Shown here piece after piece: positions 15,246 to 60,616 of a stretch of 64,000 nucleotides of DNA (within the stretch, counting starts at the first letter, position 1; the number at the start of each line of letters is the position of its first letter). The stretch is from NCBI GenBank assembly GCA_965208905.1, contig OZ242365.1, forward strand, positions 1,696,001-1,760,000, written 5' to 3'. Origin of the DNA: Nitrosopumilaceae archaeon. Its GTDB lineage: Archaea > Thermoproteota > Nitrososphaeria > Nitrososphaerales > Nitrosopumilaceae. The translations under genes and the position numbers were made by a program. The notes beneath the pieces were generated by a model. It worked only from the letters and a program-made list of their open reading frames with translations. It did not search any database and was not told the DNA's origin.

Positions 15246-15428
15246 ATGGAGAAGCCTCACTTTATCTGGTGGTTCGCGCACATAGTGCTGGGTGTGATTA
15301 CCGGACTTGTAGTCTACCTGCTATACAAGGAGAAGAACCCAGTAGCCGCGCGCAGACACCTAATCGGATCTGTAGTCATCATGATTGTGTTTAGCATATT
15401 CTTTCTGTCTCTCACATTTTTAGTCTAG
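15246..15428 (+). CDS. Small two-TM membrane protein
   Basis: Two hydrophobic helices; element-type promoter box 29 nt upstream. Confidence 0.7.
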   Translation: MEKPHFIWWFAHIVLGVITGLVVYLLYKEKNPVAARRHLIGSVVIMIVFSIFFLSLTFLV

Positions 15429-16408
15429 TATTTTGATATGCTGGATCCGTTAAGCACGGAGTGCCAGCGCGTGATACATTTTGGAAAGTCAGACCCGTCC
15501 TGCATGGCCAGTATGTCCCGTGTAGCAGGCCGCATAATCTTACCGCCGGGCAGCTCCAGCCTCATGCTTTCACCCATGCACCATCGGCAGAACACGGGTG
15601 CCATCGCGACGGCCTGCCCACCATGTATGCGGCGCAGCATGATTATCGCATCGGACGCATGCTTTTCGTCAAGTCCCCAGCGCTCGGTCAGCTCGTATAT
15701 CGGCTCAAAGCCGATTGCGCGGCTCAGTGTGCATTTGCATGCCTTCATTACCGCGCGTCCGCGCACGCTGCCAAATGTACCTGCAGCATATATGGTCACA
15801 CCCGTCTGGTGTACCGGACAAATATCAACGGGTACGGTCACGAGCACCACTATTCTGTCAACACTCACCTCAAATGCCGCATACTGTATGGTGTCATCAG
15901 GGAACGTATAGTCAATGCCTATGACCTCGCCGAGCAGGGCTCCCGCATACTCCCCGTTTATCGTGTGCAGTGGGTCGAACTGTGGATCCACGCTCATTGG
16001 ACGGCCCAGTATGGTACAGTATAGCCTCTGGACCTCCCCATTGTACAACTCCCACACGTGCCTAGAGTGCACATCAAGACCGGCCGCGCGAGCATCCTCC
16101 GGTACAAGCGGCAGCACGCCGGCCAGTACGCGTTCGGCGCGATGCTCGGCCAGTATGCGGGCGATGCACAGGCCATCCCCACTCATGGGCGGATGGTGTT
16201 CTGGCATTTGAACTCCCAACAGTCGTGTTATGTCGCGCACCCCGTATTCCACGAGTGCGTTGTTTAGTCCTGTCTGTGTATCCTCACTATTCAGTATTAG
16301 TCCACGGAACAGTTCACTGCGGTTTCTTATGCCGCGCTTGGCCATCAACTGGTGCATCATCTCAATCTCCGCATCATTCAGACTGAACGAGATTGGTATT
16401 CTACCCAT
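15425..16408 (-). CDS. RHH/CopG-like N-terminal domain protein with Cys-rich C-terminal region
   Basis: IPISFSL..RGIRNRSELFR; CPVH, CKC and CRWC motifs. Confidence 0.65.
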   Translation of the reverse strand: MGRIPISFSLNDAEIEMMHQLMAKRGIRNRSELFRGLILNSEDTQTGLNNALVEYGVRDITRLLGVQMPEHHPPMSGDGLCIARILAEHRAERVLAGVLPLVPEDARAAGLDVHSRHVWELYNGEVQRLYCTILGRPMSVDPQFDPLHTINGEYAGALLGEVIGIDYTFPDDTIQYAAFEVSVDRIVVLVTVPVDICPVHQTGVTIYAAGTFGSVRGRAVMKACKCTLSRAIGFEPIYELTERWGLDEKHASDAIIMLRRIHGGQAVAMAPVFCRWCMGESMRLELPGGKIMRPATRDILAMQDGSDFPKCITRWHSVLNGSSISKY

Positions 16409-16625
16409 TCGCCAACATCCCTCCTACCGGCTTGTCCGGCATCATCGCAGTGGGCGGTCCACCGCGCGAAGCGGCCAGCGCCTTGATAACAGCCTCCTGC
16501 AGCAGAATACGGATTAACTCATTCTGGTCTTTGATACCGCGTTTGTCCCTCAACAGGTCCATTCTCTCCAGATCTACTTCGGTGAGATACAGTGGTGTGG
16601 GACGCCGGAGGCTCTCAGGCATCAT
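16401..16625 (-). CDS. RHH/CopG-like DNA-binding protein
   Basis: TPLYLT..RGIKDQNELIRILLQEA. Confidence 0.65.
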   Translation of the reverse strand: MMPESLRRPTPLYLTEVDLERMDLLRDKRGIKDQNELIRILLQEAVIKALAASRGGPPTAMMPDKPVGGMLANG

Positions 16626-16950
16626 TTGCCGCCTCTCGCAGTATGACGCTGATTAACTGGCTATCGTTTTTGATCCCGCTCATCTCCTTCAACCATTCAA
16701 CCCTGCCCTCCGACATGCCGTCCAGACTGGCCAGCACATAACACGGCTTTTCGTCTGGCGGCCATCGTTTCCCGGGAGCATGCCGCATGCGCTCCATCTC
16801 ATCAGCCCCACCACTACAATAATACCACAGCAGGAAGCCCACACCCCAAGCGTTGGGCGTACCATCCCATGTGGTGCCCCGACGCGCGATGTTCCGGGCC
16901 AGCTCCTCATCTGATAACGACATGTCCAAGTCGCGCGGGTCAAACTCCAT
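16615..16950 (-). CDS. Protein with C-terminal RHH-like module
   Basis: SGIKNDSQLISVILREA; start MEFDP lies 28 nt from a promoter box. Confidence 0.6.
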   Translation of the reverse strand: MEFDPRDLDMSLSDEELARNIARRGTTWDGTPNAWGVGFLLWYYCSGGADEMERMRHAPGKRWPPDEKPCYVLASLDGMSEGRVEWLKEMSGIKNDSQLISVILREAANDA

Positions 16951-17026
16951 GCTTTGTATTGCTACGCATTCCATTTAAGGCGCTATATGGGTGTCCCCTT
17001 TTATACCGCCAATACGATACAATCAC

Positions 17027-17377
17027 ATGTTCGGGTGGGGCCGCAAGAAAAAACCAGAGAAAAAGCAGGAGAGCGGCCTGATGTACGCAGGCTCGCCGGC
17101 CACACAGCACAAGGAGGTCGACTTGGGTGAGACACACCATACATACAAGACAGAGGACGGCACGCTATACATGAGGGATACCGCCCTGCACCTGGTGACC
17201 GAGCAGGGCACCATCACTGCGCCATACCATACGATAGATGCATGGGAATATACCGGCAAGTCGTTCCGTGTGTGGTGGACTACATCCACACACAACTATA
17301 CGTTTGCATGCAGGCCTGAGATGTCGCCTGCAGAGGACCTGCAGAACATCATACACAAAAAAACATTTGGGATGTAA
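17027..17377 (+). CDS. PH/GRAM-like domain protein
   Basis: GTLYMRDTALHL beta pattern plus C-terminal helix. Confidence 0.5.
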   Translation: MFGWGRKKKPEKKQESGLMYAGSPATQHKEVDLGETHHTYKTEDGTLYMRDTALHLVTEQGTITAPYHTIDAWEYTGKSFRVWWTTSTHNYTFACRPEMSPAEDLQNIIHKKTFGM

Positions 17378-17381
17378 AAAA

Positions 17382-17876
17382 TTATACTTTCTTTGTAGTC
17401 CATACACCTGGTGCTACCTGACTCACCAGTTGCTGCCGCTGCGTAGTATTGTCCTTCTTTAATACCTCGACTATATCACCAGGTTTTACCGGCTCCTCGT
17501 ATACGCGTACACACCACTTTGGCTTACTGCCTGTGGGATTCTGCAAAAAGTGGTTGCGCTTCTGCGGCCTGAAGAGGTTCTCACCGACCGCCTCACCCAG
17601 TACGTGTTGTTGCTCGCCGTTCTTGCTGTTTACCGTTACGCGGTCTCCCTGCACATGCGGGGCCGTGGTCTGTATCAGCCATTCATCACCGGGTTTCGTA
17701 AAGTGGGCCTCCGCAGTCTCGGCAACCCACTCAAAGGCGAAATCATCACCCATGGGTACGGAGAGCTTTGCGCGCCGCGCCACGTTGCTTGTGTCCAGTA
17801 TCTCAATTATGTCGCCAGACTTTTTGTCGGGGGCATGTATGGTGAATATGTCATCATAGGACGTAATCGTTGCCAT
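17382..17876 (-). CDS. Hypothetical protein with three ~50-aa internal repeats
   Basis: KSGDIIEIL / VQGDRVTVNSKNG / KPGDIVEVLKKDN. Confidence 0.6.
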   Translation of the reverse strand: MATITSYDDIFTIHAPDKKSGDIIEILDTSNVARRAKLSVPMGDDFAFEWVAETAEAHFTKPGDEWLIQTTAPHVQGDRVTVNSKNGEQQHVLGEAVGENLFRPQKRNHFLQNPTGSKPKWCVRVYEEPVKPGDIVEVLKKDNTTQRQQLVSQVAPGVWTTKKV

Positions 17877-17955
17877 GCAATGTAACGTATCCATCGTATA
17901 TAAGGGGTAAAAACCACTGTAACCCTTTAACGCCCCCCGAAAATGGTTGTTAAGC

Positions 17956-18354
17956 ATGATTAAACGAGCGATGGGTGGCAAGGCTGAGGGCGCCGAGGAC
18001 CCACTTGTGGCGGCAAAGAACGTCATATTTACCCTGATTGTGCTGGCCGCATTGCTGTGGATGGCTGATTTGCTGCTCGGTGTAGACACAAGTGCCCCTA
18101 CTGGCCGTCAATACCAATGTACAGCTAGTGATGGTAGTACGTCGATTGTGACGGATGCCAACGACTGTAATGGGGTAACGAGACCAATCACACCTGATGA
18201 CAACCCAGACGCGCCCAGCGACCTACTCGGTGGAATTAAGGAGGCAGAAACACTGGCCGCCCAAGCCGTGGGGTCGATACTGTTCATCCTCAAAATCATT
18301 GTCACCGTGGCCGCAATCGCAGTCATCGGCGTGCTGCGAGTACGAACATACTAA
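17956..18354 (+). CDS. Two-TM membrane protein (possibly pilin-like)
   Basis: Two TM helices around a Cys-pair loop; promoter box 29 nt upstream. Confidence 0.65.
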   Translation: MIKRAMGGKAEGAEDPLVAAKNVIFTLIVLAALLWMADLLLGVDTSAPTGRQYQCTASDGSTSIVTDANDCNGVTRPITPDDNPDAPSDLLGGIKEAETLAAQAVGSILFILKIIVTVAAIAVIGVLRVRTY

Positions 18355-18417
18355 GAATTTTTCCCTGTTTTTTGAAACCCATATAGCGCCTTATATCGTA
18401 TGGTACAGTATGATGGC

Positions 18418-18639
18418 ATGAAACACACAGATGTAATAGACACTGCCCTGCAGATTGTCAATACGGGACGCACTGCGCACATATACTATGATGGTTCCCT
18501 GCAGTGTGGTGAGGAACCTGCAGGCAAGACGATACTGGTCCTCAGGCCTACAAGGCGCGTTAGCCGGCAAACACTCCTGGTTATGTTGACACACCGCCTG
18601 CGCATGAAGGGTATTAGCAATGGAAAGCCATGCGCTTGA
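18418..18639 (+). CDS. Hypothetical protein
   Basis: Start 27 nt after the CATATAGCGCCTTATA box; overlaps the next gene. Confidence 0.5.
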   Translation: MKHTDVIDTALQIVNTGRTAHIYYDGSLQCGEEPAGKTILVLRPTRRVSRQTLLVMLTHRLRMKGISNGKPCA

Positions 18640-18982
18640 TACGGTAGCCGGCTTGGTTGCCGGGCGGAATGCGTATGTGGCATCACCATATGGGGATGCA
18701 GATGCGCGGCGGTATGACAGATATGATGCAGTATTGCGCATGTGCGGCTATCTTATATCCGCCGGCGTGCGCGCATACTCACCCATAGTATACACACACC
18801 ACATACATGAGGCGGGCTACACGCCGCCGGATGGCTGGTATGAGTATGATCTGGGTATGTTGGGCATGTTTGATGTGCTGCTTGTATGCATGCTGCCAGG
18901 CTGGGAGGAGTCGCTTGGCGTACAGAAGGAGATTGCGCGCGCAAAGTCACTGCGCAAGCCAATACTATACGTGCGCGTCTAA
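18620..18982 (+). CDS. DUF1937 / nucleoside 2-deoxyribosyltransferase-like protein
   Basis: YVASPY..AYSPI..LPGWEESLGVQKEI..A motif. Confidence 0.8.
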   Translation: MESHALDTVAGLVAGRNAYVASPYGDADARRYDRYDAVLRMCGYLISAGVRAYSPIVYTHHIHEAGYTPPDGWYEYDLGMLGMFDVLLVCMLPGWEESLGVQKEIARAKSLRKPILYVRV

Positions 18983-21900
18983 TCATCCCCAATACCCAGC
19001 GTGCGCTTGTATTTTGTAATCACCAAAAACAGTACGGCTCCAACCACAATCGCCGGCATATACAGCCACAATACGCCACCAACCTCGTCTGTATCATATA
19101 CGGATATCTCCAGAGGTTCGGCGGCGGTAATCTCCGAGGACATCTCACCCCCATACACATTCCGTATGGTAACAACACCACCCTCCTCGTATGGTATAAT
19201 GCACGTGCTGCACGGCGTATCCACATCCTGCTTGATGCCGTCAATCAATACCTCGCGTACCGCACCAAATGTCTCAGGCGGTCGCACGTATATTGTGTCG
19301 GAGCGCTTGTTGTCCCGGCCCATATCCATATTGCCGACACCGTAATAGTCCACATATATCACGGTATTGTCTACACCCTCGCTTATCACATGCGTATCAT
19401 ATATCGGAATACCATTACAGCCGGGAGCCCCACCACCACTACATACTGCCTTGATGTGCAGTTTCTGCGGACCTACACTGGACATAACCGCCTCGTATGG
19501 CATGTCCAGTATGGAGAACGACTCTTCGGGCTCCTCACAGATAACATGTGGTACTAATTCACCCCCTATGCACTTGTAGTTTGTTGTGGTCTGTTTGCAT
19601 GCCTGCACACTCTGGCACGCGTAACTCCCCCCATCATTATAGTCCACATCCTGTACACTCACCCTCTTTATCTCATTATTCTCTACATTCTCGCAGCGTA
19701 GTATCCTGTTTGAACCTGCCTCCCACTGCAACTCATCCAAGGGTATGGGCTGCATCCCGTTGTCTGTCATGCGGCCATACATACCATCATATACATAAAC
19801 GACGCTCGGCTTCAGACCGGTTATATCATACGCTGCCGGAAACTCCCACTGCTTGTGTATGCCGTCCTGCGTAAACACATTCACGCACCTCTCATCCTGA
19901 TGTGCAATGCAGTCCTGTATGGAGTTGTCCCGCATACAATCCGACATGCGTTGTACTGTTTCAGGACATGATGTGTGGCCCGGTGTTACGTGCGGGGCCC
20001 ACAACCATTCAGTGCACTGCCCCCTGTGCTCCAGTATGCCCAATGTATCCAGCCACAGGCCGTTTCGGAACACCTCAACGGTAACATCGTCAACCCCACT
20101 CGCTACGGTCCATGGCTGGCCTGCCTCGCGCTTGGCCGCCGGTCCGTGCTTGGCGCCCTCGTAATCCTGTATAGTCATTGAGACGCCGGGCCTGTCCCTG
20201 CAGGACAGCCCATGCCAAAAGTCCCATATGGCCTCACCCCAGTCAAGGCTGAATATATTCAGTATGCTTCTGCCCTCGTCCCCGTCCACCATGCACTCGT
20301 GCATAATCATCTCGTGCGGTTCGGTTACGGGCCACATCTGTTCGGGGTATGCGGTTATGCGCAGTTCCACACCACCGCCGACCTCCCAGGGCACATCGCA
20401 CTGTACGCACGGTTGTATAGCCAGTACGCGCGCCACCGCATCATATTGTATGGTGCTTGGCGGAGTCTCCATTCCGGTTGCATGTGTTGTACCCCAGGAT
20501 TGTATTGTGCTGTTCCAGTATATGGTATCGGTGGGCCGTACATCACACGTACCACATACATCAAAGCGTATAACGCCCGTACCCGCGTGCAGCATCATCG
20601 TCGTATTACCAATACCGACATGTGATGGGGAGGATACGGGCCACTGCGGCGTGTACAACTCCAAGTCTCTTGATGTCTGGTGTGTATCCCGGGTAAACGA
20701 TATAGTCCCATATGGCGGCAGGCATGCGGGCGGCCAGTATTCATCAAATACCGGCTGGTACAGGGGCGGCATTGTCGCAGCGGAGGGTATTCGCTTTATG
20801 CTATCAAAGCTCTCAGGATCCTGGCATGTCTGATACTGTGTATGTGTATCGTATGTATCGCCAGCTGAGAGACACCATGGCTCCTGCACATCACAGTATC
20901 TATGCTCGCCATCCACAACATACGGTATTGCTATGTAATCACCAACCTTCTCAAAAGGCAGTATTGTATCATCCCTGATGCTATCAAACGATATGCCGTC
21001 TGCATCCACACTGCCATCAGGCGTAATGGTGCCGATAATAACAGCAGGATCGCAGTGTCCGTCGGGCCCGTCCTGTATGGTGTATGCATCGCTTAGACAC
21101 GCATCCAAATCATCACCACCATCCCGACCAAACTTTGCCCAGCAGTCCCCCACTGCATTAAACATCACGCCGGTACGATCCAGACACTTCCGTATGCCGT
21201 CCGATGTAAGCATATCCCAGTTGTCGGATATGTTGTTCCCGTCCAAGTCCGTACCCGATTCGACCACATCACAGATGTTGTTGTTGTCCGTATCCGTACA
21301 CGAGCAGTACAGACTGCCGTCCGATGTAAGCATGTTGCCCGGCCGCTCCACAACACCACCGAATGCCCCGGTTGTGGGCGTGTACGGCACATATACCAGC
21401 CGGTTGCTCCCGTCCCAGAACGGCTCCGGTGGGGTCGGCGAGAATTTTACCCCGCAGTCAGATTCCATGCATTCGCGCCAGTCATGTATGATATCACCGT
21501 TTATGGCCGGCTCATACATCCCTATGCTGAATCGCGCATGACACAGATAAGGGGTCGTAGTACCGCTCCCAATCTCGCTTGTATCGATAATTGGCGTCTG
21601 CACATCATATATGACACCCAAGTCAGTGCAGAGTGATACCATCACCTCATCTATCGTACGATATGACTCGCGCACGCACTGCGCGGTCGGTGATGCGCCG
21701 CACCACTGTATGACCATCTGCTCAAGGCGCTCATGCCCTCGTATGATATAATCATCCGGATATAAGAATGGCTGAAATACATCCTCGCATCTGCGATCAT
21801 GCTCCGGCTTGCACTCCCCGCCCCGATATACGCCACAATCCCTGTCCAGTATGCGTGAGAGTCCAATCGAGTGCTCGCACTGCACCGAATCCAACACATA

Positions 21901-23601
21901 GTGCTGTGGCATGTTGTCTGGCGAGCCTGAAAATATGCCCCTGTACGAGTAAGGAGTGACATCATCGCCGTATTGCGCAGCAAAGCCCGTCATGCCCCAG
22001 TCCTCGGGCTTTGGCTGGTTGACCTGCGCCCCTCCTTGGCTGGCTATCTGGTCCATCACACAATACGGTACAAAGTCCCTGTCCGTGCCGGGCGCATAGT
22101 CCCAGTTCAGGTATGGCGTGTCATGTGTTGTACATTCGCCATCAAGGCCGCACACGATATACTGGCCGGCAAGGCCGTCAAGCTTGGCACGCGTCTCCGG
22201 GTTGAGCGCCGACCACCTGCCCCACTCAAATGCTGCCGGCTCTGGTGGATATACCGTATATGATGATGGCGATACTCCGACAACGCCGTACGGCGCATCC
22301 TTGTCGGGGCACAACTCCCCCACTGTACGTCCCCACACATCGGTCGAGCCGGTCTGCCCGAATGGTACCGGCGCGCCATCCACATCATGTATGGTGCCAA
22401 CCGTACAGTAGTGCAACGTGTCGGATATTGTGCCATTAAAATCGACGATGACCGAGACCGGCCTGTCCATGGCTGTATCCCCACCCCAGGCAGTATTTGT
22501 GATGGCTGTTGTGTTTATCGCTGGGTTATACGTCGGGACAAACTGATAGGTGGTGTTGTATCCCTTTGTGATGTACTGGCCGTTATTCGTCATTGTGGCA
22601 GTAATCTGTACCGGGCCGCTCTGTCTGGCAGATATTACAAATAATGATTCGCCCTCGTCCAGTTTGCCTGGTACACCAGCCTCCGGTTCCTCCCACGGTA
22701 GGTTTTTTGCGTCTAGTTGTTGCGCACGATGCCCTATGTAGTCTGATGTACTATCAACCCCCGACAAGTCTATCCTGCATGTCTTCTCATTACAGTGAAA
22801 CTCCTCCACACTGCTTGTAGTGTCGTGTGTTATCTTTATTGTCTCATGCCTGTACGCGCCATACATCAGATTTGAGCCAACCTCCAGTGGTATGGCATCT
22901 TTGGGATAATTCGAGTAGTCTAAATTTGAGGCAGGATATCCCTCCATATCCAATATGTGATGCTCGTATATTGACGTCTCCCAGAAGGGGTTGCGGTATT
23001 GGAATCGCGGGTGTATTGTTGCGGTAGCCACCTGACAACCGTAAAGTGGATCATCAATCCCGCCGGTTACCGTGAATGCAGCACCGCCGGTAAGACCGCC
23101 CCCCTCCTGTATGCCGTTCTGGTGGGTGCGCGCACGTCCGTCTGAATCGTATTCGACAGTGTGAATGAAGCCATCATGTATGACACTGCCCGGCACCGGC
23201 TCGCTTGTTATTATCCTCATTTTCTGCGCGTATTGTATTGTCCCACTACCAGTACCGGCTACACCCCCAGAATCTCTGATGGAGTCCACCTCCGACCACC
23301 GGCCATCTGCCTTAGGTCCGTCTATCCCCATACCGCAGTTGCAATACTCGCCGATACTGTATCGTATACTCCCACCCACAGAGTCGCCGGGATACAGCGA
23401 TGGGTCATGCGGCGAGTTGTTTGTCGGAACAAACTCCCTACCGACATCATCCCCATACCATGAATACCACTGTGTTGCTCCCACCGTACAGGTAACCCCC
23501 CGAACCGTGACCGAGTCAGTCGCACTGTCGGATCCATCACCATACGCAATACCAACGACACAAAGTAGTGGTATTACACATGCTAGTCTGAGGCAACCCA
23601 G
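18979..23601 (-). CDS. Giant (~1540 aa) Cys-rich secreted, C-terminally membrane-anchored protein (adhesin-like)
   Basis: Open frame extends 39 codons upstream of 23484 and includes a signal-peptide-like stretch. DxDxN Ca-binding-like motifs; C-terminal TM followed by KYKR. Confidence 0.75.
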   Translation of the reverse strand: MGCLRLACVIPLLCVVGIAYGDGSDSATDSVTVRGVTCTVGATQWYSWYGDDVGREFVPTNNSPHDPSLYPGDSVGGSIRYSIGEYCNCGMGIDGPKADGRWSEVDSIRDSGGVAGTGSGTIQYAQKMRIITSEPVPGSVIHDGFIHTVEYDSDGRARTHQNGIQEGGGLTGGAAFTVTGGIDDPLYGCQVATATIHPRFQYRNPFWETSIYEHHILDMEGYPASNLDYSNYPKDAIPLEVGSNLMYGAYRHETIKITHDTTSSVEEFHCNEKTCRIDLSGVDSTSDYIGHRAQQLDAKNLPWEEPEAGVPGKLDEGESLFVISARQSGPVQITATMTNNGQYITKGYNTTYQFVPTYNPAINTTAITNTAWGGDTAMDRPVSVIVDFNGTISDTLHYCTVGTIHDVDGAPVPFGQTGSTDVWGRTVGELCPDKDAPYGVVGVSPSSYTVYPPEPAAFEWGRWSALNPETRAKLDGLAGQYIVCGLDGECTTHDTPYLNWDYAPGTDRDFVPYCVMDQIASQGGAQVNQPKPEDWGMTGFAAQYGDDVTPYSYRGIFSGSPDNMPQHYVLDSVQCEHSIGLSRILDRDCGVYRGGECKPEHDRRCEDVFQPFLYPDDYIIRGHERLEQMVIQWCGASPTAQCVRESYRTIDEVMVSLCTDLGVIYDVQTPIIDTSEIGSGTTTPYLCHARFSIGMYEPAINGDIIHDWRECMESDCGVKFSPTPPEPFWDGSNRLVYVPYTPTTGAFGGVVERPGNMLTSDGSLYCSCTDTDNNNICDVVESGTDLDGNNISDNWDMLTSDGIRKCLDRTGVMFNAVGDCWAKFGRDGGDDLDACLSDAYTIQDGPDGHCDPAVIIGTITPDGSVDADGISFDSIRDDTILPFEKVGDYIAIPYVVDGEHRYCDVQEPWCLSAGDTYDTHTQYQTCQDPESFDSIKRIPSAATMPPLYQPVFDEYWPPACLPPYGTISFTRDTHQTSRDLELYTPQWPVSSPSHVGIGNTTMMLHAGTGVIRFDVCGTCDVRPTDTIYWNSTIQSWGTTHATGMETPPSTIQYDAVARVLAIQPCVQCDVPWEVGGGVELRITAYPEQMWPVTEPHEMIMHECMVDGDEGRSILNIFSLDWGEAIWDFWHGLSCRDRPGVSMTIQDYEGAKHGPAAKREAGQPWTVASGVDDVTVEVFRNGLWLDTLGILEHRGQCTEWLWAPHVTPGHTSCPETVQRMSDCMRDNSIQDCIAHQDERCVNVFTQDGIHKQWEFPAAYDITGLKPSVVYVYDGMYGRMTDNGMQPIPLDELQWEAGSNRILRCENVENNEIKRVSVQDVDYNDGGSYACQSVQACKQTTTNYKCIGGELVPHVICEEPEESFSILDMPYEAVMSSVGPQKLHIKAVCSGGGAPGCNGIPIYDTHVISEGVDNTVIYVDYYGVGNMDMGRDNKRSDTIYVRPPETFGAVREVLIDGIKQDVDTPCSTCIIPYEEGGVVTIRNVYGGEMSSEITAAEPLEISVYDTDEVGGVLWLYMPAIVVGAVLFLVITKYKRTLGIGDD

Positions 23602-24559: not shown

Positions 24560-24633
24560 GATGTATAATGTGCGCGGGATACGTTTTTGGATTACACGTT
24601 TTGGTGTGGCCTGGTGTGGTTACTCCGAAATTA

Positions 24634-26061: not shown

Positions 26062-26104
26062 GTCTTGTGTACAATGGAATCCTATTAAAGTTACCAAAAA
26101 GTAA

Positions 26105-26179: not shown

Positions 26180-26207
26180 TCTAATAAACCACCGTACAGT
26201 GACATTT

Positions 26208-50847: not shown

Positions 50848-50866
50848 CCATATAGCGCCTTAAAAG
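50848..50866 (+). promoter_or_regulatory. Element-type promoter box CCATATAGCGCCTTAAA, 28 nt before the TBP start
   Basis: The same motif occurs at 16974-16990(-), 18379-18395(+) and 38834-38850(-). Confidence 0.7.
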
Positions 50867-53419: not shown

Positions 53420-54037
53420 TCAGGACTTGGCCTTCACGAATACCAGAGTCCTGCCGGCCACCTGCGCACCCGTATCATCATGTATGGTGATGCTTTTCTC
53501 ACCGACCATATCGTCAGGATATAGTACCAGATGTACCGTTCCATCCGTATCCGGGTGGGGCGTACTACACAGCACATCATCCATGCGAACCTCAAGGCGT
53601 TTGTCAAGCGGCATGTCTGAAGGTAGGCTCATGCGCAGCTCACGGGGTCGATCATATACGGTTATCTGCAATGATTCGTCGGGTGTAGGCTTGGCATCGG
53701 CCGTGTCCTGTACGGCGCGCGGCATGACATACTTTTTTGGCTTTGGGCCGGCCTTCGCTTCTTTGGGACCAAACATCCTAAACCGCATCATATGGTATAG
53801 ACGCATCTCATATCCCAACAGCGGCGGGCGGAACTTGGCAAACAAAAATGCCGCCAACAGAGGCCAGGGAGCCGCATATATGCCGGCTACCTGAACCGCA
53901 ATAAACATGCCCGGCAGGCCCGCGCCCACCAGTATGCCAAGCTGCAGTACGGTGACCCAGCCCAGTACCGGCAGGTGGAACATCTTTTGGTTTGGCAGTG
54001 TGGGTTTTTCATACCATTGGAAACGGGGCTCGGTCAT
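53420..54037 (-). CDS. PrgI/VirB3-like membrane protein
   Basis: LGWVTVLQLGIL two-TM pattern followed by AKFRP; last gene of the ATPase operon. Confidence 0.55.
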   Translation of the reverse strand: MTEPRFQWYEKPTLPNQKMFHLPVLGWVTVLQLGILVGAGLPGMFIAVQVAGIYAAPWPLLAAFLFAKFRPPLLGYEMRLYHMMRFRMFGPKEAKAGPKPKKYVMPRAVQDTADAKPTPDESLQITVYDRPRELRMSLPSDMPLDKRLEVRMDDVLCSTPHPDTDGTVHLVLYPDDMVGEKSITIHDDTGAQVAGRTLVFVKAKS

Positions 54038-54909
54038 GCCAACTCCTCCAGACGGTACTGTTTAACGTTGCCTGCCGCGCACCATATGTGGCATGCGGCC
54101 AGTCCAAACATAAAGGATCCCAATATTACATGCCATTGTATCGGTCCCGTACTGCCCAGCATAATGGATACGCCGACAATCGCCGCAAAATACCATATCG
54201 TGTGTAATGTGAGTGCCAGCCGTATGGTACACCGCCTAAACATGTATCGCATTATTACGTTGGCCTCGTATCGCATGAGGCGTCTCCCAAAACGCGCCGT
54301 GCTGTATACGTCTGCTGCATATGATATAATCATTGCAGCAACGCCGACGGGCCAAATCCCATCGTACATGGCGCATACAGCTACACCAATACCGCAGGGT
54401 ATCACACACCACACCCATGTTGGCCGGCCAACATACATCACCGCGGCGCTGGCCAGCGCTCCGATTACCGTACCATATTTGAGTCCCATCAAGCCGACTG
54501 AATATATGTCGTACAATCCCAACGACTCGCGCGACTTTGCCAGGTTTGCCCGCCATAGATCTTCCGCGAGGGGAGGCACTATTCCATCACAGTTGGCGCC
54601 GCCGGGCACCATACATTGCACGTAGCATATGCCGTCCCTGTAGGAATACTGTATACCGTCGGATGGTTCGGGGCACATTATATCGCCCCTCCATATTGGC
54701 GGTACCATAAATATCTCCATGGGCATCTCAGATACCGCCTGCACTGCCAGCGGTACACACCAGACAACCAGCACGCCGAACACAAAGAACACGACAATAT
54801 TGCCCAGGGTGCCGGCCTTCTCTCCCTGGCCTGTTACATATCTCTTGTACATCTGGCCACCCCCACAAGGCCCAAAATCATGAATACTATAACAACCAGT
54901 ATGCTCCAC
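54034..54909 (-). CDS. Multi-TM membrane protein (C-terminal DUF5658-like)
   Basis: ADVYST..EANVIMR motif; many TM helices. Confidence 0.6.
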   Translation of the reverse strand: MEHTGCYSIHDFGPCGGGQMYKRYVTGQGEKAGTLGNIVVFFVFGVLVVWCVPLAVQAVSEMPMEIFMVPPIWRGDIMCPEPSDGIQYSYRDGICYVQCMVPGGANCDGIVPPLAEDLWRANLAKSRESLGLYDIYSVGLMGLKYGTVIGALASAAVMYVGRPTWVWCVIPCGIGVAVCAMYDGIWPVGVAAMIISYAADVYSTARFGRRLMRYEANVIMRYMFRRCTIRLALTLHTIWYFAAIVGVSIMLGSTGPIQWHVILGSFMFGLAACHIWCAAGNVKQYRLEELA

Positions 54910-55097
54910 TGTATGGTCTCCCAGACCAGCGGGTCGCCTCCAAAGATGCTGGTCAGGTCATCCTTCGTCATATAATTATACAGGTACGGCGCGGCCGCAA
55001 GTATCACGCCCAGTACTATTGCCCTCGATAGCAGTTTTCGTATCTTCTCGGCTATCTCCACATTGTTGGATTCATCACCAATAGAACGATGATACAC
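54834..55097 (-). CDS. Small two-TM protein (VirB2-like candidate)
   Basis: Two hydrophobic helices; position within the secretion operon. Confidence 0.45.
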   Translation of the reverse strand: MYHRSIGDESNNVEIAEKIRKLLSRAIVLGVILAAAPYLYNYMTKDDLTSIFGGDPLVWETIQWSILVVIVFMILGLVGVARCTRDM

Positions 55098-57307
55098 TAT
55101 ACATTCGCCTCCGGACTCTTGTGTATTCTCCCACTCTTTCTGTATATTGTACCGGCCTCCTCCAGGCGCTGCATCGTACCGGCTATCTCACTATTCTCGT
55201 ATGTGCCGTGCATGTGACTCTGTAGTGTAGATATCGGCAGTCCGCCCTTGGGTATCATGTGCAGTATTTTTGACTCTATGTCATCAGTACTTTGCGTGTA
55301 TTCGCAGAATTTTAACGGGTTGGCGGGCCTGAACCCGGGAGGTATAGGTATGGACTTTCCTGCCAGTATGGCATCATATGTAATGACACTGACATGATAT
55401 GCAGTATGATCAACACCCATCTCGGCAAGCTGGCTTTTGACATGCTGTGCGTCACGTTCATTATACACCAAAAACCACACCGTACAATCAGGACTCTTCT
55501 TCCAGTTTTTGTACACCTGGCCCGGTTTTCCCGGCTTGTTTGGGTGACGCGCGGGGCCGGTCTCCACCTCTATGGCAACACGATTGCCCCAGCGCTGCAC
55601 ATCCGGATTCCCCTCGGGGCCGGTAGCGGGCTCGCATACCTCCAGATCAGCCATCTGTGATGCAGTATCGCCTACATCCATCTTTGTGTAGTAGCCGCGC
55701 CTCGTATAGTTGTCATGCAGTGCCTTTATGGTGCGTATGTGCCGCTCACCGCCGGCCCGTCCCTTCAGGGCGGCCACATCAAAGTGCTTGTTTATGCATT
55801 CAGCCCTTAAGGTGTAAATTGTATCATTGTGTCTGGATACCGCATCCACCACGCCATCGCGCCGCAGGTGCTCCAGACGCTGTGCTATGGTGCGCTTCTC
55901 CACATCAAAATGCCGAACCGCCTCATGTATGTCATGTATGCCCAGGCCGTCCGGATTATGGTACAGTATGGACATTATACACATATCCAGAGGCTTGACA
56001 TCGTATGCGTGCGCGGGATCATTTGTATATTTGGCCATGTCGACATCCACGCCATATGTAGCCAGCGAAAAGTCCACTATTTCGTCCAGTGTTGCATGGT
56101 GTACGACCGCATCATCCATGTTGCGCGTGCGCATCAGACTGCCGTGTACGTCGCCTGACGGCACCCCCATGTGGAAGCTCATGTGGAACTTGGGAATCTT
56201 TGTCAGTACCTCCGGCCTGTCTATGCCCATCTTTGGCGCAACCCTCTTGGCGGTATCCATCGTACAGTTGCTTACGATATACAGGGAGCAGTTTCCAAGC
56301 ATGGCGGCCGCATCATCCTTGTCTATGCTTTCAAGTTGCTGTGTTGCCAGCGTCATGCGTATGCCCCACTTTCTTACCTGTTGGAGCATCTCCTTGAGTT
56401 TGGTCGAATCTATCATCTGCATCTCGTCCACGTACAGGTAGAATTGCTTTGGCTTGACGTTTTGCGGGCGGGACTGCGCAAGCTTGGCGGCCGCAGTAGT
56501 CATCATCGTCAGCAAAAACGTGGTGAACAGCGTCCTCTCTATATCGTTGGAGCAGCCGGCCCCGTCAAATATCAGTATGCCGTGATTGTCCAACAGTTTC
56601 TGCATGTTGAATGCCGTACCGCCCTCAAAGAATGGCCCCACTGCGGGGTTCGATACTATGGGAGTCAGTTTGTTGTCTACTGCCGGGACCGCATCCTTTG
56701 CCTGCTTTGGAAATACCTTGTCCCAGAACAACAGGTTGTCCTGTATGTTGACGTCCGCCAGTACGATATCACGTTCGGACTCATCCAGTATTATTTTGTG
56801 CAGCAGGTCCATGCCGCCCCGACCAGACGCTATTATGCTTACGGCCGCCGCGGTCAGTATCTGCTGCATGCGCGGCCCGTCCGTCCCGAATGCCTTCAGC
56901 AAGGTTTCCGTAAAGGCCGTCGCCGCAGTTGCTGGCGAGTCACCATTCGGCTCAAGCGGGTTTATCGGCACTGCCTTTCCGGTGCGTTTCAGCTGATCCG
57001 GCGATATGTACACAAGATGGTTTGCGCGCCATTCTGGTATTCGCTGCGCAGCCCAGGCCGCCAGGTCGTGGTGCGGATCCAGTATGGCAACACCATCACC
57101 GCGTATGAGATTCTGGCGTATCAGCATCTTCAACACAGTACTCTTGCCAAAACCGCTGGAGCCCAGTATCATCGCGTGCAGCCGGTGCTTTTCGGGTATG
57201 CATATGGTATCGGCCGGTATGTTGGGATCATACCTGTCATGCGTATACCCTATGGCCGTCAGCCCATCGGGTATGGGATTACTCCCCGGCGGGACGATGC
57301 TACTCAT
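55097..57307 (-). CDS. VirD4/HerA-like coupling ATPase with C-terminal wHTH and PD-(D/E)XK-like domain
   Basis: Walker A GSSGFGKS, ILDPH, Walker B YVDEMQ, RKWG, LATQ; later ADL..AIEVE. Confidence 0.85.
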   Translation of the reverse strand: MSSIVPPGSNPIPDGLTAIGYTHDRYDPNIPADTICIPEKHRLHAMILGSSGFGKSTVLKMLIRQNLIRGDGVAILDPHHDLAAWAAQRIPEWRANHLVYISPDQLKRTGKAVPINPLEPNGDSPATAATAFTETLLKAFGTDGPRMQQILTAAAVSIIASGRGGMDLLHKIILDESERDIVLADVNIQDNLLFWDKVFPKQAKDAVPAVDNKLTPIVSNPAVGPFFEGGTAFNMQKLLDNHGILIFDGAGCSNDIERTLFTTFLLTMMTTAAAKLAQSRPQNVKPKQFYLYVDEMQMIDSTKLKEMLQQVRKWGIRMTLATQQLESIDKDDAAAMLGNCSLYIVSNCTMDTAKRVAPKMGIDRPEVLTKIPKFHMSFHMGVPSGDVHGSLMRTRNMDDAVVHHATLDEIVDFSLATYGVDVDMAKYTNDPAHAYDVKPLDMCIMSILYHNPDGLGIHDIHEAVRHFDVEKRTIAQRLEHLRRDGVVDAVSRHNDTIYTLRAECINKHFDVAALKGRAGGERHIRTIKALHDNYTRRGYYTKMDVGDTASQMADLEVCEPATGPEGNPDVQRWGNRVAIEVETGPARHPNKPGKPGQVYKNWKKSPDCTVWFLVYNERDAQHVKSQLAEMGVDHTAYHVSVITYDAILAGKSIPIPPGFRPANPLKFCEYTQSTDDIESKILHMIPKGGLPISTLQSHMHGTYENSEIAGTMQRLEEAGTIYRKSGRIHKSPEANV

Positions 57308-59375
57308 AATACCTCCCCAGTATGCTGAATACCGACTGTACGTCATTGGCGTCATGTATGATGCACTCCTCCAGCAACTCTTCGCGGCGTTTCATGTCGG
57401 CGGCGGGGTTTTGAACGTTGTTCCTAAAGCACGCCTCCGTATATTGCTGCGTATTCAGCATGTTCTTTGCTTCATGGAACGAGTCGTCCTGCAATGAATA
57501 GGTGAATATCTCTTTTAGTACGGGCTTGCCGTCTATGCCCGGCGTTACCTCGGTTATGTTTCGAACGCGGCGTTTGGATATGCCGGATATGCGGACCTCG
57601 GTAACATATACTATAAACCCCAGCAGGGCGAGTTCCGCATGGGATACGCCGCCCAGTTCCATGCGGGTAAGCGCGCCCAGGGGCGTGTTGGCATGGAAAG
57701 TCGTATTGTGCGTTACGACGCCATCCCCGTGCGTAAAGTTGCCCGTTGACTTTACCTCTATGTCGTATAGTGTGGTGCCCAGCGAGGGTATCTCCACGGA
57801 TTGTATGGTACGCCACTCATATGTATTCTGTATTGCGTGGTATCGCTCGGGTATTATATGGCATTCCCGTACAAACTCCTCCGGGCCGGATAATGCGAAC
57901 TGCCTTAAATCCGCTACCCTTTGCCTTGCAAGCAGTTTTCCGCCGTCCGCATCAAGCGGTATGGCCATCTCGTCTCCGTTTGATACATGTGTAGCCACAT
58001 CCCGGTACAGTCCACATATTACGGGTATCGAGTCGCCAATCTTTACATCGGATGCATGTATCACGCCCCTCTCCGTAATCATGGGATGGTGCGCATGTAC
58101 AGTGCAGGTGGCCCCGCCCGCGGTTATGCGCCTCCAGTCATCCTTTCCGTGCTTTACGATTGTGCCGGTTATGGGGTGCCAGTCACATTTGCCGCCCTCC
58201 ATTGAGTATGCGTATAGCGTCTCGCCGTCCCGGAACCGCTCTATTACATTTCGTATGGTATCATATGATATGGTGGAGCCGTTTTTTACAGGCATCATCT
58301 CGTTGGGCGGCAGACACAAGCCGCCGTGCCCGGTGCCCATGGATTGAAACAGGTACTTGGCATCGGCCACATCCCTTATCTCGCCCACTATCTCATAGTC
58401 GGGCTTCTGCGTGAGTGACTGGTCTATCAGTTTTTGAATGGTAACGTCGTGCTCTGAACCAACTATCGATGTGGTCTTTTTTGTGTGATATCGTACCCAG
58501 TCCTCGTGCGGTATCTGCAGCTCCAGAGAGTCCTCTATGGTTAAAATGCGCCAGCGCGGATGCATCATGGTTGTAAGTGCGGACAACAGCGTGGTCTTGC
58601 CCGAACCCGTAGTGCCTATTACCAGCCCGGCGGCGCGCGCATTGAGCAGCGACCACAGATATGCGCACATTCTGGGCGTCAGCGTATTGCCCTTCATCAT
58701 GTGTGTAATTACATACGGATTTTCCGGGAATTTTCTTATGGCTATTGTGCTGCCGGGCTCGGATACCACACTCTTGAAGGTCGCCGATATACGCGACTTG
58801 TCCTGCAGATACGTGACGGCTCCCGGCTTTGCCACGGTGGGCTCGTTTCCGGTGGGCCTGAACATCCTTGATATGAATGTGGCCATAGCCGCGTCGGTAC
58901 GAAACAGTACGTTCGTCTTTAGTGAGTGGAACCTGTTGCTGTGTACTTTGTGTTTTATGTATGCGGGCCTGCCGGGAGCGGAGACTAGTATGTCCTCTAT
59001 ATGCGGATCCGTCATCAAAGGGTGCAGTATGCCGTATCCGGTAACATCTCGGGATATGTAGTATTTGAGCGCATGAAACAACCCATCAAGTTCGCGCTTT
59101 TCGTATATCTTCATGCCAACATCCCAGAACCGCTTCTTTACTATACGTTCCAGTTCTGCGGGCGTCTTGTTCTTGACGTCCAGTACCATACTCTCCCACA
59201 TCTTCTGTATAATGCGCGTGTATGCTTTACCGGCGGCTTCTGAGAATGGCGGCTCGGTTACCAGATAGCGGCCATCCGCCGTCACCCGTACCGAGACCAT
59301 GCCGTCGGCCACGGTATACTGGTCGATTATCTCGAAATCTTCAACATCAACGCTGGTGTGGTGTATGGTATCCAT
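57300..59375 (-). CDS. VirB11/CpaF/FlaI-type secretion ATPase with intein
   Basis: DPHIEDI, IRKF, GTTGSGKTT, TIEDSLEL, PD..VGEIR, TGHG..TFHA. Confidence 0.92.
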   Translation of the reverse strand: MDTIHHTSVDVEDFEIIDQYTVADGMVSVRVTADGRYLVTEPPFSEAAGKAYTRIIQKMWESMVLDVKNKTPAELERIVKKRFWDVGMKIYEKRELDGLFHALKYYISRDVTGYGILHPLMTDPHIEDILVSAPGRPAYIKHKVHSNRFHSLKTNVLFRTDAAMATFISRMFRPTGNEPTVAKPGAVTYLQDKSRISATFKSVVSEPGSTIAIRKFPENPYVITHMMKGNTLTPRMCAYLWSLLNARAAGLVIGTTGSGKTTLLSALTTMMHPRWRILTIEDSLELQIPHEDWVRYHTKKTTSIVGSEHDVTIQKLIDQSLTQKPDYEIVGEIRDVADAKYLFQSMGTGHGGLCLPPNEMMPVKNGSTISYDTIRNVIERFRDGETLYAYSMEGGKCDWHPITGTIVKHGKDDWRRITAGGATCTVHAHHPMITERGVIHASDVKIGDSIPVICGLYRDVATHVSNGDEMAIPLDADGGKLLARQRVADLRQFALSGPEEFVRECHIIPERYHAIQNTYEWRTIQSVEIPSLGTTLYDIEVKSTGNFTHGDGVVTHNTTFHANTPLGALTRMELGGVSHAELALLGFIVYVTEVRISGISKRRVRNITEVTPGIDGKPVLKEIFTYSLQDDSFHEAKNMLNTQQYTEACFRNNVQNPAADMKRREELLEECIIHDANDVQSVFSILGRYYE
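57705..58316 (-). mobile_element. Mini-intein (204 aa) in the secretion ATPase at GHGGL|TTFH
   Basis: Starts CLPPNE; ends LYDIEV..GNF..VVTHN followed by Thr. Confidence 0.9.
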
Positions 59376-59516
59376 ACTATATTGTATGACCAGGGGGCGT
59401 TAATGGATTACAGTGGGTATGCCGGACCCGCACCGCTGGGTTAACCTAACGAGGAAGTATGACCCCGCCCGGCTGACTATATCATGCATGGTGCAATTTA
59501 AGGCTCCATATGACAT

Positions 59517-60105
59517 GGGGCTGTTAAGTTACTGTGACCCACCGGATGGTGTTAAATCTGTGACCTAGGGTGGTTAGACCTGGGGCTGTAACATCTAACA
59601 TCACATGAGATGGTGTAATATGCGTCACCATTTGTCCAAAATACATAAATAAAGTAACTACCACCATGAGTATTATGTCAGATGACGGAGATTATGTGGA
59701 TAAGAAAGATGTTGAGAGGCGTAGAAAGGAAATAGAGGAATACGCAAAGAACGATCAGCGACGCAAAATCGTCTACGATGAAGATTTATAAACCACAATC
59801 CCTACTATACAATATGGATGATATACAGAGAAAGAGGAAGGTAGATACATACTTTACGACAGGTACCCCCACTGGTCCCTACAAGGCGACATATGAGGAC
59901 AGTCTAAAGGAGATAAGGAACCCATTTGCGTTGGATAAAACCAAAGGTGCTCCGGGCTTTCCGCGAACACGTTAGAAATTTCTAGTTTTCAAATCACGTA
60001 AAACTCCTTGGGTTTTTCCACCCTACCCCTTTTCATCTTTAAAGAGATCCTGTCCGGGTCACAGATTTAACACCATCCGGTGGGTCACAGTAACTTAACA
60101 GCCCC
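59517..60105. mobile_element. Non-autonomous transposon: perfect 49-bp TIRs (GGGGCTG..), 8-bp TSD TATGACAT
   Basis: 59517-59565 is the reverse complement of 60057-60105; TSD at 59509-59516 and 60106-60113. Confidence 0.93.
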
Positions 60106-60165
60106 TATGACATAACGCTAAATCTCGTTAATTCCTTAAACGTCACCGAACACATACCATACCAA

Positions 60166-60414
60166 ATGGGCTGCATAACAACCAAGCATATAGGACGGGC
60201 CGATTATGTTTACGTGGAGTGGTACGCCAACGGTATACACAGGACAAAGTCATGCGGTAATGCGGCCAGGCCGGAGAGTTTCCGGCGTGCTCGTCAGGTG
60301 CTGGTTGATGTTATGCGCGAACGTATAGCGGCGATGGAGTCGCAGGTTGACCAAATGATTATAGACGCCGAAATCGGGGCGGTAAACGGCCAGGCTGATG
60401 AATCCCCTCCTTAA
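60166..60414 (+). CDS. Hypothetical protein
   Basis: YVYVEWY..TKSCG beta-rich N-terminus plus coiled coil; promoter box 30 nt upstream. Confidence 0.6.
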   Translation: MGCITTKHIGRADYVYVEWYANGIHRTKSCGNAARPESFRRARQVLVDVMRERIAAMESQVDQMIIDAEIGAVNGQADESPP

Positions 60415-60616
60415 ATGCAATGAATGCCATACGATACACATGTCGACAATGGAAGTACCGCGTCCCGATACGGATGCCTCACGGCCGCCGCGCTACACAC
60501 TATCACAGATTCTGGCCAATATCACATCACATACGGTAATACTTGATGCCAAAGACGATGCAGGTGCCATAACAATGGCTGAACTATACATGATGCGTCT
60601 AAGTCCTGGTGCTTGA
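60398..60616 (+). CDS. Small CxxC protein running into the repeat array
   Basis: LKCNECH; overlaps the previous gene. Confidence 0.45.
   Translation: MNPLLKCNECHTIHMSTMEVPRPDTDASRPPRYTLSQILANITSHTVILDAKDDAGAITMAELYMMRLSPGA

Follow-up and report, generated by a model that had tools for sequence, protein, structure and literature searches.

Genes of the window and of the island around it

We analysed bases 1696001–1760000 of contig OZ242365.1, from the genome of a Nitrosopumilaceae archaeon, in which an earlier note had placed a large integrative element between positions 15246 and 60616; 'the window' denotes the whole 64,000 nucleotides (nt), and positions refer to it unless genome coordinates are indicated. 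The genome (G000) is a single contig of 2,214,775 bp with 45.6% GC and was compared with its relatives (here G001, G003, G005, G006, G008 and G009), the genus set comprising nine other genomes. The window lies within a GC-rich island of about 190 kb (genome ~1589–1781 kb; 8.7% of the genome), of which ~1590–1770 kb, at ~50% GC, was flagged as atypical by GC and tetranucleotide profiles; the GC content is 50.2% in the island versus 45.2% in the host. Because island genes continue outside the window and host genes (proteasome alpha and MetH) reappear only at ~1782 kb, to the right of the island, neither 15246 nor 60616 marks an end of the element.

Open reading frames (ORFs) of the window were scanned with Pfam (68 ORFs), NCBIfam (38) and PHROGs (38). 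The Pfam and NCBIfam scans were extended beyond the window by 106 ORFs leftward and 25 rightward, and the PHROGs scan for virion genes covered 118 ORFs in total (38 in the first set and 80 more). Every gene listed in the earlier note was found at its place. The features that bear on the nature of the element are listed here.

15208–15228 (+): upstream motif TGTAACCCATTAACGTATCCC, preceding the next gene
15246–15428 (+): two-helix membrane protein of 60 amino acids (aa)
15425–16408 (−): small conserved gene, no family
16615–16974 (−): small conserved gene, no family
16976–16990 (−): island promoter motif CCATATAGCGCCTTA, in front of 16615–16974 (−)
16991–17377 (+): small conserved gene, no family
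17382–18089 (−): small conserved gene, no family
18400–18639 (+): 79-aa gene; motif at 18379–18393
18620–18982 (+): DUF1937/nucleoside 2-deoxyribosyltransferase-like protein (PF09152, E 8.6e-10; phrog_355, 1.3e-12)
18979–23484 (−): 1501-aa surface protein with a C-terminal hydrophobic membrane anchor, downstream of two pilin-like genes
23583–24086 (−): pilin-like gene; N-terminal class-III-type hydrophobic segment, by eye
24083–24559 (−): pilin-like gene; N-terminal class-III-type hydrophobic segment, by eye
24634–26097 (−): tyrosine recombinase (integrase) of 487 aa, beginning directly after the tRNA-Ile 3′ end
26105–26179 (−): tRNA-Ile(GAT), the only tRNA gene in the window and the genome's only tRNA-Ile(GAT)
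33291–34094 (−): pilin-like protein; N-terminal RRPAISGLIVTLILIGI signal, by eye
34744–35448 (+): PD-(D/E)XK/Cas4-like exonuclease (phrog_298, 4.5e-55; PDDEXK_1, 2.6e-6)
36077–38806 (−): class II (B12) ribonucleotide reductase (RNR; TIGR02504, 597 bits versus a cut-off of 400); motif at 38836–38850
38901–39494 (−): rhomboid protease (Pfam, 9.6e-21)
39925–48263 (−): 8.3-kb cassette with a pentapeptide-repeat protein, a 1684-aa PKD protein and a 124-aa gene
41572–46626 (−): the 1684-aa PKD surface protein (Pfam, 3.5e-138)
47222–48031 (−): enoyl-CoA hydratase, crotonase fold (ECH_1, 8.4e-33)
50888–51415 (+): TATA-binding protein (TBP; Pfam, 8.6e-38); motif at 50848–50862
~51660–52592 (+): ATP-cone protein (ATP-cone, 5.6e-13) with a C-terminal domain of no family, ending in a cysteine cluster
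53420–54037, 54034–54909 and 54834–55097 (−): three membrane proteins, downstream of the ATPases
55097–57355 (−): VirD4/TrwB-like coupling-type ATPase with a ~370-aa C-terminal extension
57300–59375 (−): FlaI/PilB-type pilus ATPase (T2SSE, 5.6e-25; NCBIfam FlaI, 2.4e-58, and BasE, 5.2e-50)

The RNR, exonuclease, DUF1937 protein, TBP, rhomboid protease and crotonase named in the earlier note thus each have profile support, and its giant adhesin corresponds to giant surface proteins, the PKD protein and the 1501-aa protein. The latter has no family match in Pfam, NCBIfam, PHROGs or Atlas, and the genes at 15425–18089 gave no significant match in the Pfam, NCBIfam and PHROGs scans.

By sequence, the integrase has no match in Pfam and only XerA (E 9.7e-5) in NCBIfam; single-sequence and profile searches of the PDB retrieved no recombinase for it, and a fold search alone did so. 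Its AlphaFold2 (AF2) model (pLDDT 66.7) matches only tyrosine recombinases, with XerA (5hxy; E 1.1e-5) best, together with Cre, XerH and lambda Int, and R182, R310, H338 and Y348 are invariant in an alignment of eight homologues. Position, modelled fold and these residues bear out the proposed integrase at tRNA-Ile. In this family the recombinase gene always lies directly after a tRNA gene: homologues adjoin tRNA genes in G009, G001 (twice) and G006, and at tRNA-Lys in G000 itself, and related elements are bounded by 14–18-nt direct repeats of the tRNA 3′ end.

The two ATPases at 55–59 kb are parts of the putative transfer apparatus. The VirD4-like protein exceeds the cut-offs of TrwB_AAD_bind (45 bits; cut-off 20.5) and TraG-D_C (28.5 bits); its best PDB sequence match is TrwB, with E 5e-4 over only ~40 residues, and reading the sequence by eye, with no predictor run, showed no hydrophobic stretch at the N-terminus. 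The neighbouring ATPase is closer to FlaI (2.4e-58) than to VirB11 (~1e-17) among the NCBIfam models, and is interrupted by a 204-aa intein (residues 354–557; 57705–58316; Intein_splicing 2.3e-6 on the insert alone). For the three membrane proteins the only match is a non-significant one to PrgI (VirB3-like, PF12666; E 0.54). The VirB11–VirD4–PrgI-like operon of the earlier note therefore stands in its VirD4 member and in the VirB11 superfamily of its other ATPase, which is of FlaI type; its PrgI-like member is non-significant. A search for VirB4 beyond the limits first drawn did find such a gene, in the island outside the window, where further relevant genes also lie (genome coordinates):

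1601461–1609043: Rad50–Mre11–HerA–NurA-like operon and RadA, back to back, second copies
1632452–1634287: VirB4-like ATPase (conju_CD1110, 3.5e-31; AAA_10; TraG P-loop)
1679452–1681347: TadC/UpsF-like protein (T2SSF; UpsF, 6.3e-44), with large secreted proteins and pilin-like genes alongside
1761694–1764314: accessory TopoVI A and B, just right of the window; the host set is at 55–58 kb

Outside the window the island carries Rad50, Mre11, HerA, a NurA-like gene, RadA and Hjc, together with MCM, a second TBP (genome 1630858–1631376) and an MmeI system; several restriction or defence systems, a PriL-like gene and TFIIB genes (three by Pfam and one partial) are also present there. Altogether the island holds extra copies of a class II RNR, two TBP, at least three TFIIB, MCM, PriL, Hjc, RadA, Rad50–Mre11–HerA–NurA and TopoVI A/B. 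The host has its own paralogues of these information genes at other places in the genome, with 27–55% identity, RadA excepted: the island RadA is 89% identical to that of the host and is unique to G000. The accessory TopoVI B is present in one of the nine genus genomes. The host RNR (genome 550563–553220) is of a type found in every relative with a match and is ~55% identical to the window RNR; the accessory type (64–91% identity) occurs in four of the nine other genus genomes, and is broken or interrupted by stops in G005, G008 and G009. The window RNR contains a 225-aa insert (residues 354–578; 37073–37747) in its NPCGE site, the excision of which restores NP/CGE, and on which the Intein_splicing profile reaches only E 0.012. 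Judged by sequence, it is an accessory, intein-bearing copy, the host having its own. The host's working copies of RNR, TopoVI, RadA, MCM and TBP are not those of this region, which annotators should be cautious about taking for the host's genes.

Large viruses commonly have RNR, Cas4-like exonucleases, deoxyribosyltransferase-like proteins and inteins, as well as tRNAs of the kind that this element possibly bears. One might thus consider a prophage-like or giant virus-like element, with structural genes too divergent for profiles and with RNR, exonuclease, TBP, inteins and tRNAs as cargo of virus type, the more so as about half of the conserved ORFs lack any family in Pfam, NCBIfam or PHROGs. 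We regard it as very improbable. Pfam and PHROGs scans of the 118 ORFs yielded no capsid, portal or tail gene, no fold-level search of the family-less ORFs having been made, and the sole PHROGs 'terminase large subunit' rows (phrog_2666; E 1.8e-9, 1.4e-4 and 8.9e-12) are weak matches to the P-loops of the VirD4-like, FlaI-like and VirB4-like ATPases. A full set of pilus and VirB4/VirD4 genes is present instead, as is an anti-restriction homologue of a type typical of conjugative elements. No relaxase family was found in the Pfam, NCBIfam and PHROGs scans of window and island ORFs, so that the earlier statement that capsid, terminase and relaxase genes are missing agrees with these scans. Its description of the element as a virus-like hybrid finds no support beyond the DNA-metabolism cargo. 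A conjugative type of element is the better description of these genes.

Related elements and a shared motif

A contiguous block of ~143 kb in G009 (2312.8–2456.0 kb) holds homologues of genes from both halves of the window. Its integrase lies directly beside tRNA-Val(TAC), a 14-nt copy of the 3′ end of which is found 143 kb away in direct orientation, and no tRNA gene lies inside the block. From the left half (15–26 kb) it shares the 60-aa membrane protein (59%), the genes at 15425, 16991 and 17382 (31%, 50% and 51%; neighbours at 2349.5–2351.8 kb), the 79-aa gene at 18400 (48%; 45% in G001), the 1501-aa protein (47% over 1594 columns), both pilin-like genes (47% and 44%, adjoining the giant gene) and the integrase. 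From the right half (33–60 kb) it shares the pilin-like gene at 33291 (71%; 46% in G003; beside the RNR block), the exonuclease (58%), the RNR, the rhomboid protease (52%), the enoyl-CoA hydratase (61%; a 38% paralogue lies elsewhere in G000), the genes at 46834 and 48152, the TBP and ATP-cone protein (54% and 65%), two membrane proteins and the VirD4-like and FlaI-like ATPases. The rest of the island is represented by VirB4-like (77%), MCM, TFIIB, TadC-cluster, PriL-like and MmeI homologues. The G009 element has 114 ORFs of at least 100 aa. For 49 of these the best match in G000 falls within the island and for 15 it falls outside, and the other 50 have no match in G000; the corresponding numbers for 36 ORFs flanking the element are 0, 17 and 19. 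The combination of RNR and TBP, which the earlier note had singled out, is conserved cargo of the family, both being present in the G009 element. The TBP and ATP-cone genes are adjacent in both genomes. The ATP-cone protein has 17 relatives in a search of 5.8 billion proteins (56–92% identical); its AF2 model is of low confidence over the C-terminal two thirds, PDB matches cover the ATP-cone only, and in a profile comparison with RNR only the ATP-cone matches.

Parts of the same gene set recur in other genomes. G003 has the RNR, two membrane proteins and the VirD4-like and FlaI-like genes side by side, with a TadC cluster 12 kb away; the membrane proteins keep the same order in G009 and G003 (69–73% and 41–47%), and VirD4-like homologues of 59–92% identity occur in G005, G003, G009 and G001 (twice). 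An element of 48 kb in G001, at tRNA-Val(GAC), is bounded by an 18-nt repeat and has its VirD4-like gene 7 kb from the integrase. G000 itself holds a second, 39.1-kb element at tRNA-Lys(CTT) (genome 557710–596849), with 14-nt repeats of the tRNA 3′ end at its boundaries and an integrase 59% identical to that of the window; its region 562150–569277 is 91% identical in DNA to the 8.3-kb cassette of the window, and paralogues of the VirD4-like and FlaI-like genes were not found in this element. Integration of the family at four different tRNA genes with attachment (att) repeats indicates that site-specific integration has probably occurred repeatedly. Matches of 34 nt to tRNA-Ile that adjoin integrases in G001 and G006 were rejected as att copies, being full tRNA-Val(GAC) genes.

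The two halves also resemble each other in composition. The tetranucleotide distance between them is 0.012, and their distances from the host mean are 0.025 and 0.020, the 95th percentile for host pieces of the same size being 0.020; the comparison of k-mer composition with the host thus finds both halves to be host outliers that are like one another.

A further shared feature is the 15-mer CCATATAGCGCCTTA, which occurs exactly four times in the window, twice in the left half, at 16976 (−) and 18379 (+), and twice in the right half, before the RNR and the TBP, at 38836 (−) and 50848 (+). The presence of one promoter signature on both sides of the host block, as the earlier note had it, is thereby confirmed. 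Allowing up to three mismatches, the window contains 22 matches versus 1.84 expected, a number reached in none of 100 shuffles. Genome-wide, seven of seven exact copies, 12 of 13 with at most one mismatch and 20 of 23 with at most two lie inside the island, spread over 1608–1777 kb. The motif continues as a TATA-like sequence (AAAT or TATA). It precedes the ATG by 22–39 nt at the NurA-like operon, a protease gene, a 212-aa gene, the RNR, the TBP and, as a variant, a pentapeptide gene; such spacing fits promoters of leaderless archaeal transcripts. At RadA, 16615 and 18400 the nearest in-frame ATG is only 1–6 nt past the motif, and we read starts 25–38 nt downstream of it as the candidates for these genes. 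The copies at genome 1608002 (−) and 1608029 (+) precede the NurA-like operon and RadA, the host counterparts of which lie at 1201–1207 kb and 2194 kb. A subset of island genes shares this island-restricted motif, CCATATAGCGCC followed by a TATA-like box and lying 22–40 nt ahead of the ATG, a predicted promoter. In G005 the motif stands before the RNR piece; in G009, a GCGCC-plus-TATA analogue was seen before the RNR and two TBP genes (by eye, in 13 upstream regions), k-mer counting having failed there because of the 65% GC. A second motif, TGTAACCCATTAACGTATCCC, recurs before the pilin-like operon (24576–24596) and at genome 1598686; three of its four genome matches are in the island and the fourth is in the tRNA-Lys element.

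As a tentative proposal, the element may run a private transcription, its own TBP and TFIIB recognizing an element-specific CCATATAGCGCC-plus-TATA promoter before the RNR, RadA, NurA–HerA–Mre11–Rad50 and TBP genes; this would be a programme of DNA supply, repair and replication independent of the host, with the ATP-cone protein as a nucleotide sensor. Through the island-restricted promoter it can be asked in concrete terms whether mobile elements of archaea run private regulons with their own TBP and TFB.

The shared genes, motif and composition support the view that both halves belong to one element family. Could the island nevertheless be a second replicon that was integrated and is now fixed, once a megaplasmid or chromid, in which the pilus and ATPases serve host adhesion or DNA uptake and not transfer of the element? 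Genes for replication, repair and transcription do occur in it alongside large surface proteins (PKD, 1501-aa and pentapeptide), and its conjugation genes are scattered across ~120 kb. Versions of 15.2–26.1 kb with 90–97% identity are present in three independent metagenomes of sponge or marine origin, on contigs that stop at the same tRNA core. The VirB4-like and VirD4-like proteins give weak NCBIfam matches to Ced DNA-import ATPases, with scores far below the cut-offs of those models. A fixed replicon is improbable, in our view, given a distribution in the genus that is patchy (a close VirD4-like gene in four of nine genomes and the accessory RNR also in four of nine) and insertion at four different tRNA genes with att repeats; patchiness and the range of targets indirectly argue for mobility.

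We therefore consider it probable, at roughly 70%, that the island is mainly one giant integrative element of the kind described as thaumarchaeal integrative and conjugative elements (ICEs), rearranged and riddled with insertion sequences (ISs) and miniature inverted-repeat transposable elements (MITEs), and that the stretch originally flagged is its central part.

The host islet and the integrity of the element

Between the halves, and within and beside them, lie host DNA and mobile DNA of other kinds.

3479–4504, 12334–13722 and 31646–32680: transposases (heavy IS load)
26091–28112: host islet, with tRNA-Ile(GAT) at 26105–26179 (−), AhpC at 26208–26801 (−) and a helix-turn-helix (HTH)/B12-binding regulator at 27182–28087 (−)
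28172–33290: mobile clutter, with a module (28172–29076), two nucleotidyltransferase/HEPN genes (29111–30665; Pfam), an IS (31033–32680) and an HTH gene (32790–33290)
59509–60114: MITE-like insertion with 58-nt terminal inverted repeats (59509–59565 and 60057–60114; 96.6% complementary)
60166–60616 (+): two small ORFs, 87% identical in DNA to genome 584967–585428 in the tRNA-Lys element; also in G005

The tRNA-Ile and AhpC genes are kept in all nine genus genomes, and in G005, the closest relative, a match of 96% identity spans exactly 26091–28112, with different flanks on both sides in the stretches compared. The islet has 42% GC. The host tRNA block recognized in the earlier note is thus present, at ~2 kb rather than the full 26–33 kb. 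The rest of that interval is mobile: the module at 28172–29076 is 96% identical to genome 2100619–2101524, which lies beside an integrase fragment, and the transposase of the IS at 31033–32680 has 12 further genome copies of at least 99.4% identity. Two rve-type transposases have 13 and 12 further near-identical copies, and an IS6/IS240-type transposase with a SWIM finger is among the ISs of the window. In G005 the FlaI gene, homologues of the two small ORFs at 60166–60616 and the accessory TopoVI genes are contiguous, and the segment 59509–60114 is missing from that otherwise collinear locus. Tandem arrays of 117–132-nt units (60585–61643 and 63480–63880), with degenerate copies of the promoter motif inside, flank a 608-aa pentapeptide-repeat gene, and this block is likewise absent from the G005 locus. 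The MITE and the repeats, pentapeptide gene and TnpB at 60590–65637 are therefore insertions in G000, in line with the IS and MITE activity invoked earlier.

Other features of the island are noted here in their own right. Small cysteine-rich genes or fragments with the C-terminal tail GKTGWVNNQPP occur in at least seven copies, all in the island:

15063–15182 (−): cysteine-rich family copy
Genome 1589908, 1592133, 1599408, 1612526, 1631915 and 1641656: cysteine-rich family copies

At 11439–12232 (+), also inside the island, a SocA/Panacea-domain gene followed by a 103-aa ORF resembles a toxin–antitoxin pair.

Sequencing reads bear on the assembly of the region. Contigs of the probable source read run cover 15072–26113 and 26150–28258 without contradiction, with depths of 9.5–10.5 (15–26 kb), 8.9 (33.4–33.9 kb) and 13.8 (islet), per-contig figures that cannot rank the parts; in runs X5–X7, the interval 29.2–31 kb is uncovered, which, coming from contigs only, proves nothing. 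A contig joint from 24610 to 15078 was considered as a circle junction and rejected, since it is accounted for by short repeats, found ~700 nt from each other at genome 1598.7–1599.4 kb as well. One contig of the source run matches from 26102 rightward, at tRNA-Ile, and continues leftward in different, AT-rich letters; it could represent another locus, or a co-occurring strain in which the site is empty.

Several observations weigh against the integrity of a single element. The second attachment end (attR) of the tRNA-Ile copy was sought in G000 with 12–20 nt and 0–2 mismatches, and chance-level matches and one remnant at 2100 kb were all that was found. A conserved host islet sits between the halves, and none of the single inversions tried as its origin fitted the gene order. 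GC inside the window spans 43% to 58%. Rfam places two tRNA genes inside the island, at genome 1664528–1664599 (38.7 bits) and 1672832–1672903 (56.4 bits; CAT anticodon), which could be element cargo or further host islets marking separate insertions. CCATATAGCGCCTTA, at up to two mismatches, was not found in the G009, G003 and G001 loci examined. On the side of transfer, VirB3 and VirB6 equivalents have no support from hidden Markov models (HMMs), nor do any of the three pilin-like proteins of the window, the three announced in the earlier note being recognized by eye from their N-terminal signals, and general Pfam scans of island ORFs gave no ParB and no prepilin peptidase (Peptidase_A24).

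The island might instead be an accretion hotspot, in which several related but independent elements and transposons inserted over time near tRNA-Ile and other targets and mixed their modules, so that the halves were never one unit. The missing attR, the islet, the two additional tRNA genes and the patchy GC would all suit such a history, as would the 91%-identical cassette shared with the 39-kb tRNA-Lys relative in the same genome, the size range of the family (39 to 143 kb) and integrase or att remnants in G000 at 2100, 2174 and 1401 kb. The first of these remnants (2100156–2101524), 378 kb away, carries the terminal 14-mer of tRNA-Ile in inverted orientation (at 2100156), with 28 nt more, fused to an integrase fragment (residues 1–156) and the 96% copy of 28172–29076; apart from the tRNA gene itself, this is the sole place where the 14-mer occurs. 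With an IS directly against its core, the remnant resembles a junction left by an older or a tandem element. Several sets of genes might be expected of an accretion, but the integrase, VirB4-like, VirD4-like, FlaI-like and TadC-like genes, MCM and the accessory RNR are each present once. Moreover, G009 holds nearly the same gene set in a single att-bounded block without an internal tRNA, and the private motif extends over the island from 1608 to 1777 kb. Accretion is accordingly rather unlikely as the main origin of the island.

The choice of one element over accretion is drawn from the relatives, as no attR was found for this copy. The search for att repeats was thus rewarded in three relatives (14, 14 and 18 nt) and not in this copy. 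What the earlier note called one large element or element family, later rearranged, is well founded as one family, by the G009 block, the motif and the composition; for this copy, that it was one element is suggested only by relatives. The history of the island is not reconstructable, because the G009 neighbours of AhpC map to ~1352–1358 kb of G000 and the host backbones are too rearranged.

Proposed transfer and comparison with known systems

A single giant element of ICE type would excise from and integrate at tRNA 3′ ends, replicate using its own MCM and primase parts, and have its private promoters read by its own TBP and TFIIB. It might pass from cell to cell by an apparatus combining a type IV pilus with VirB4/VirD4, without a relaxase, as has been proposed for other archaeal conjugative elements, namely thaumarchaeal ICEs and Sulfolobus plasmids (PMC6563490). 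The G000 copy as a whole is probably immobile, since it has no detectable attR and its transfer genes, scattered across ~120 kb, lie to either side of the host islet.

The described thaumarchaeal ICEs (for instance NitEve-E6 and NCAV2-E1/E2) integrate at tRNA 3′ ends with short att sites and reach 140 kb; they have a tyrosine integrase, a VirB4-/VirD4-like pair, a FlaI ATPase, TadC, pilins, TFIIB usually beside ParB, no relaxase, and cargo of copper proteins and restriction–modification systems (PMC6563490). The island shares with them its target, its integrase, the ATPase pair, the FlaI-type and TadC-type parts of a pilus, with pilin-like genes as candidates, the presence of TFIIB genes, the absence of a recognized relaxase and its size (PMC6563490). 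Its integrase abuts a tRNA 3′ end, its relatives have att repeats, and it combines the VirB4-like/VirD4-like pair with a FlaI-type ATPase and a TadC-type protein. Unlike the described ICEs, it has no second att end that could be found in this copy, and neither ParB nor a prepilin peptidase appeared in general Pfam scans. It differs further in its cargo of class II RNR, TopoVI A/B, Rad50/Mre11/HerA/NurA and RadA, in its island-restricted motif, in its host, a member of the Nitrosopumilaceae, and in being rearranged around a host islet. RNR, TopoVI, Rad50 and RadA are absent from the main text and the supplementary gene tables, possibly incomplete, of that report, in which a TBP appears once in the supplementary tables, on a cryptic element (PMC6563490). 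Literature searches returned nothing closer than that report, and the terms sought are absent from the available text of 10.1101/2025.08.23.671958.

Archaeal type IV pili (Ups, bindosome and archaellum) provide the best matches of the island's pilus core, namely FlaI, BasE and UpsF, all far below equivalog cut-offs; unlike in those systems, the island genes stand beside VirB4-/VirD4-like ATPases on a mobile island and are split between loci 63 kb apart. The Ced/Ted DNA-import systems of Thermoproteota have a HerA/VirB4-type ATPase next to small membrane proteins. The island resembles them only weakly (CedD, E 6.5e-5; CedB, 2.7e-4), cut-offs of 600–700 bits not being approached, and its genes lie, unlike theirs, within an integrase-bounded mobile element. 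Conjugative plasmids of Sulfolobales (pNOB8 type), compared here by description only, are much smaller and have no such FlaI/TadC pilus set and no informational cargo. In common with the island they have VirB4/TrbE-like and VirD4/TraG-like ATPases, no relaxase and a tRNA-targeting integrase (PMC6563490).

Most known mobile elements of ammonia-oxidizing archaea come from soil or free-living strains. The island shows that Nitrosopumilaceae carry ICE-type elements of 140–190 kb, here 8.7% of the genome, which probably take with them additional copies of genes at the core of replication, repair, transcription and nucleotide supply. The element described here belongs to the known thaumarchaeal ICE kind; what is new is its host lineage, its informational cargo, its two inteins and its island-restricted promoter motif.

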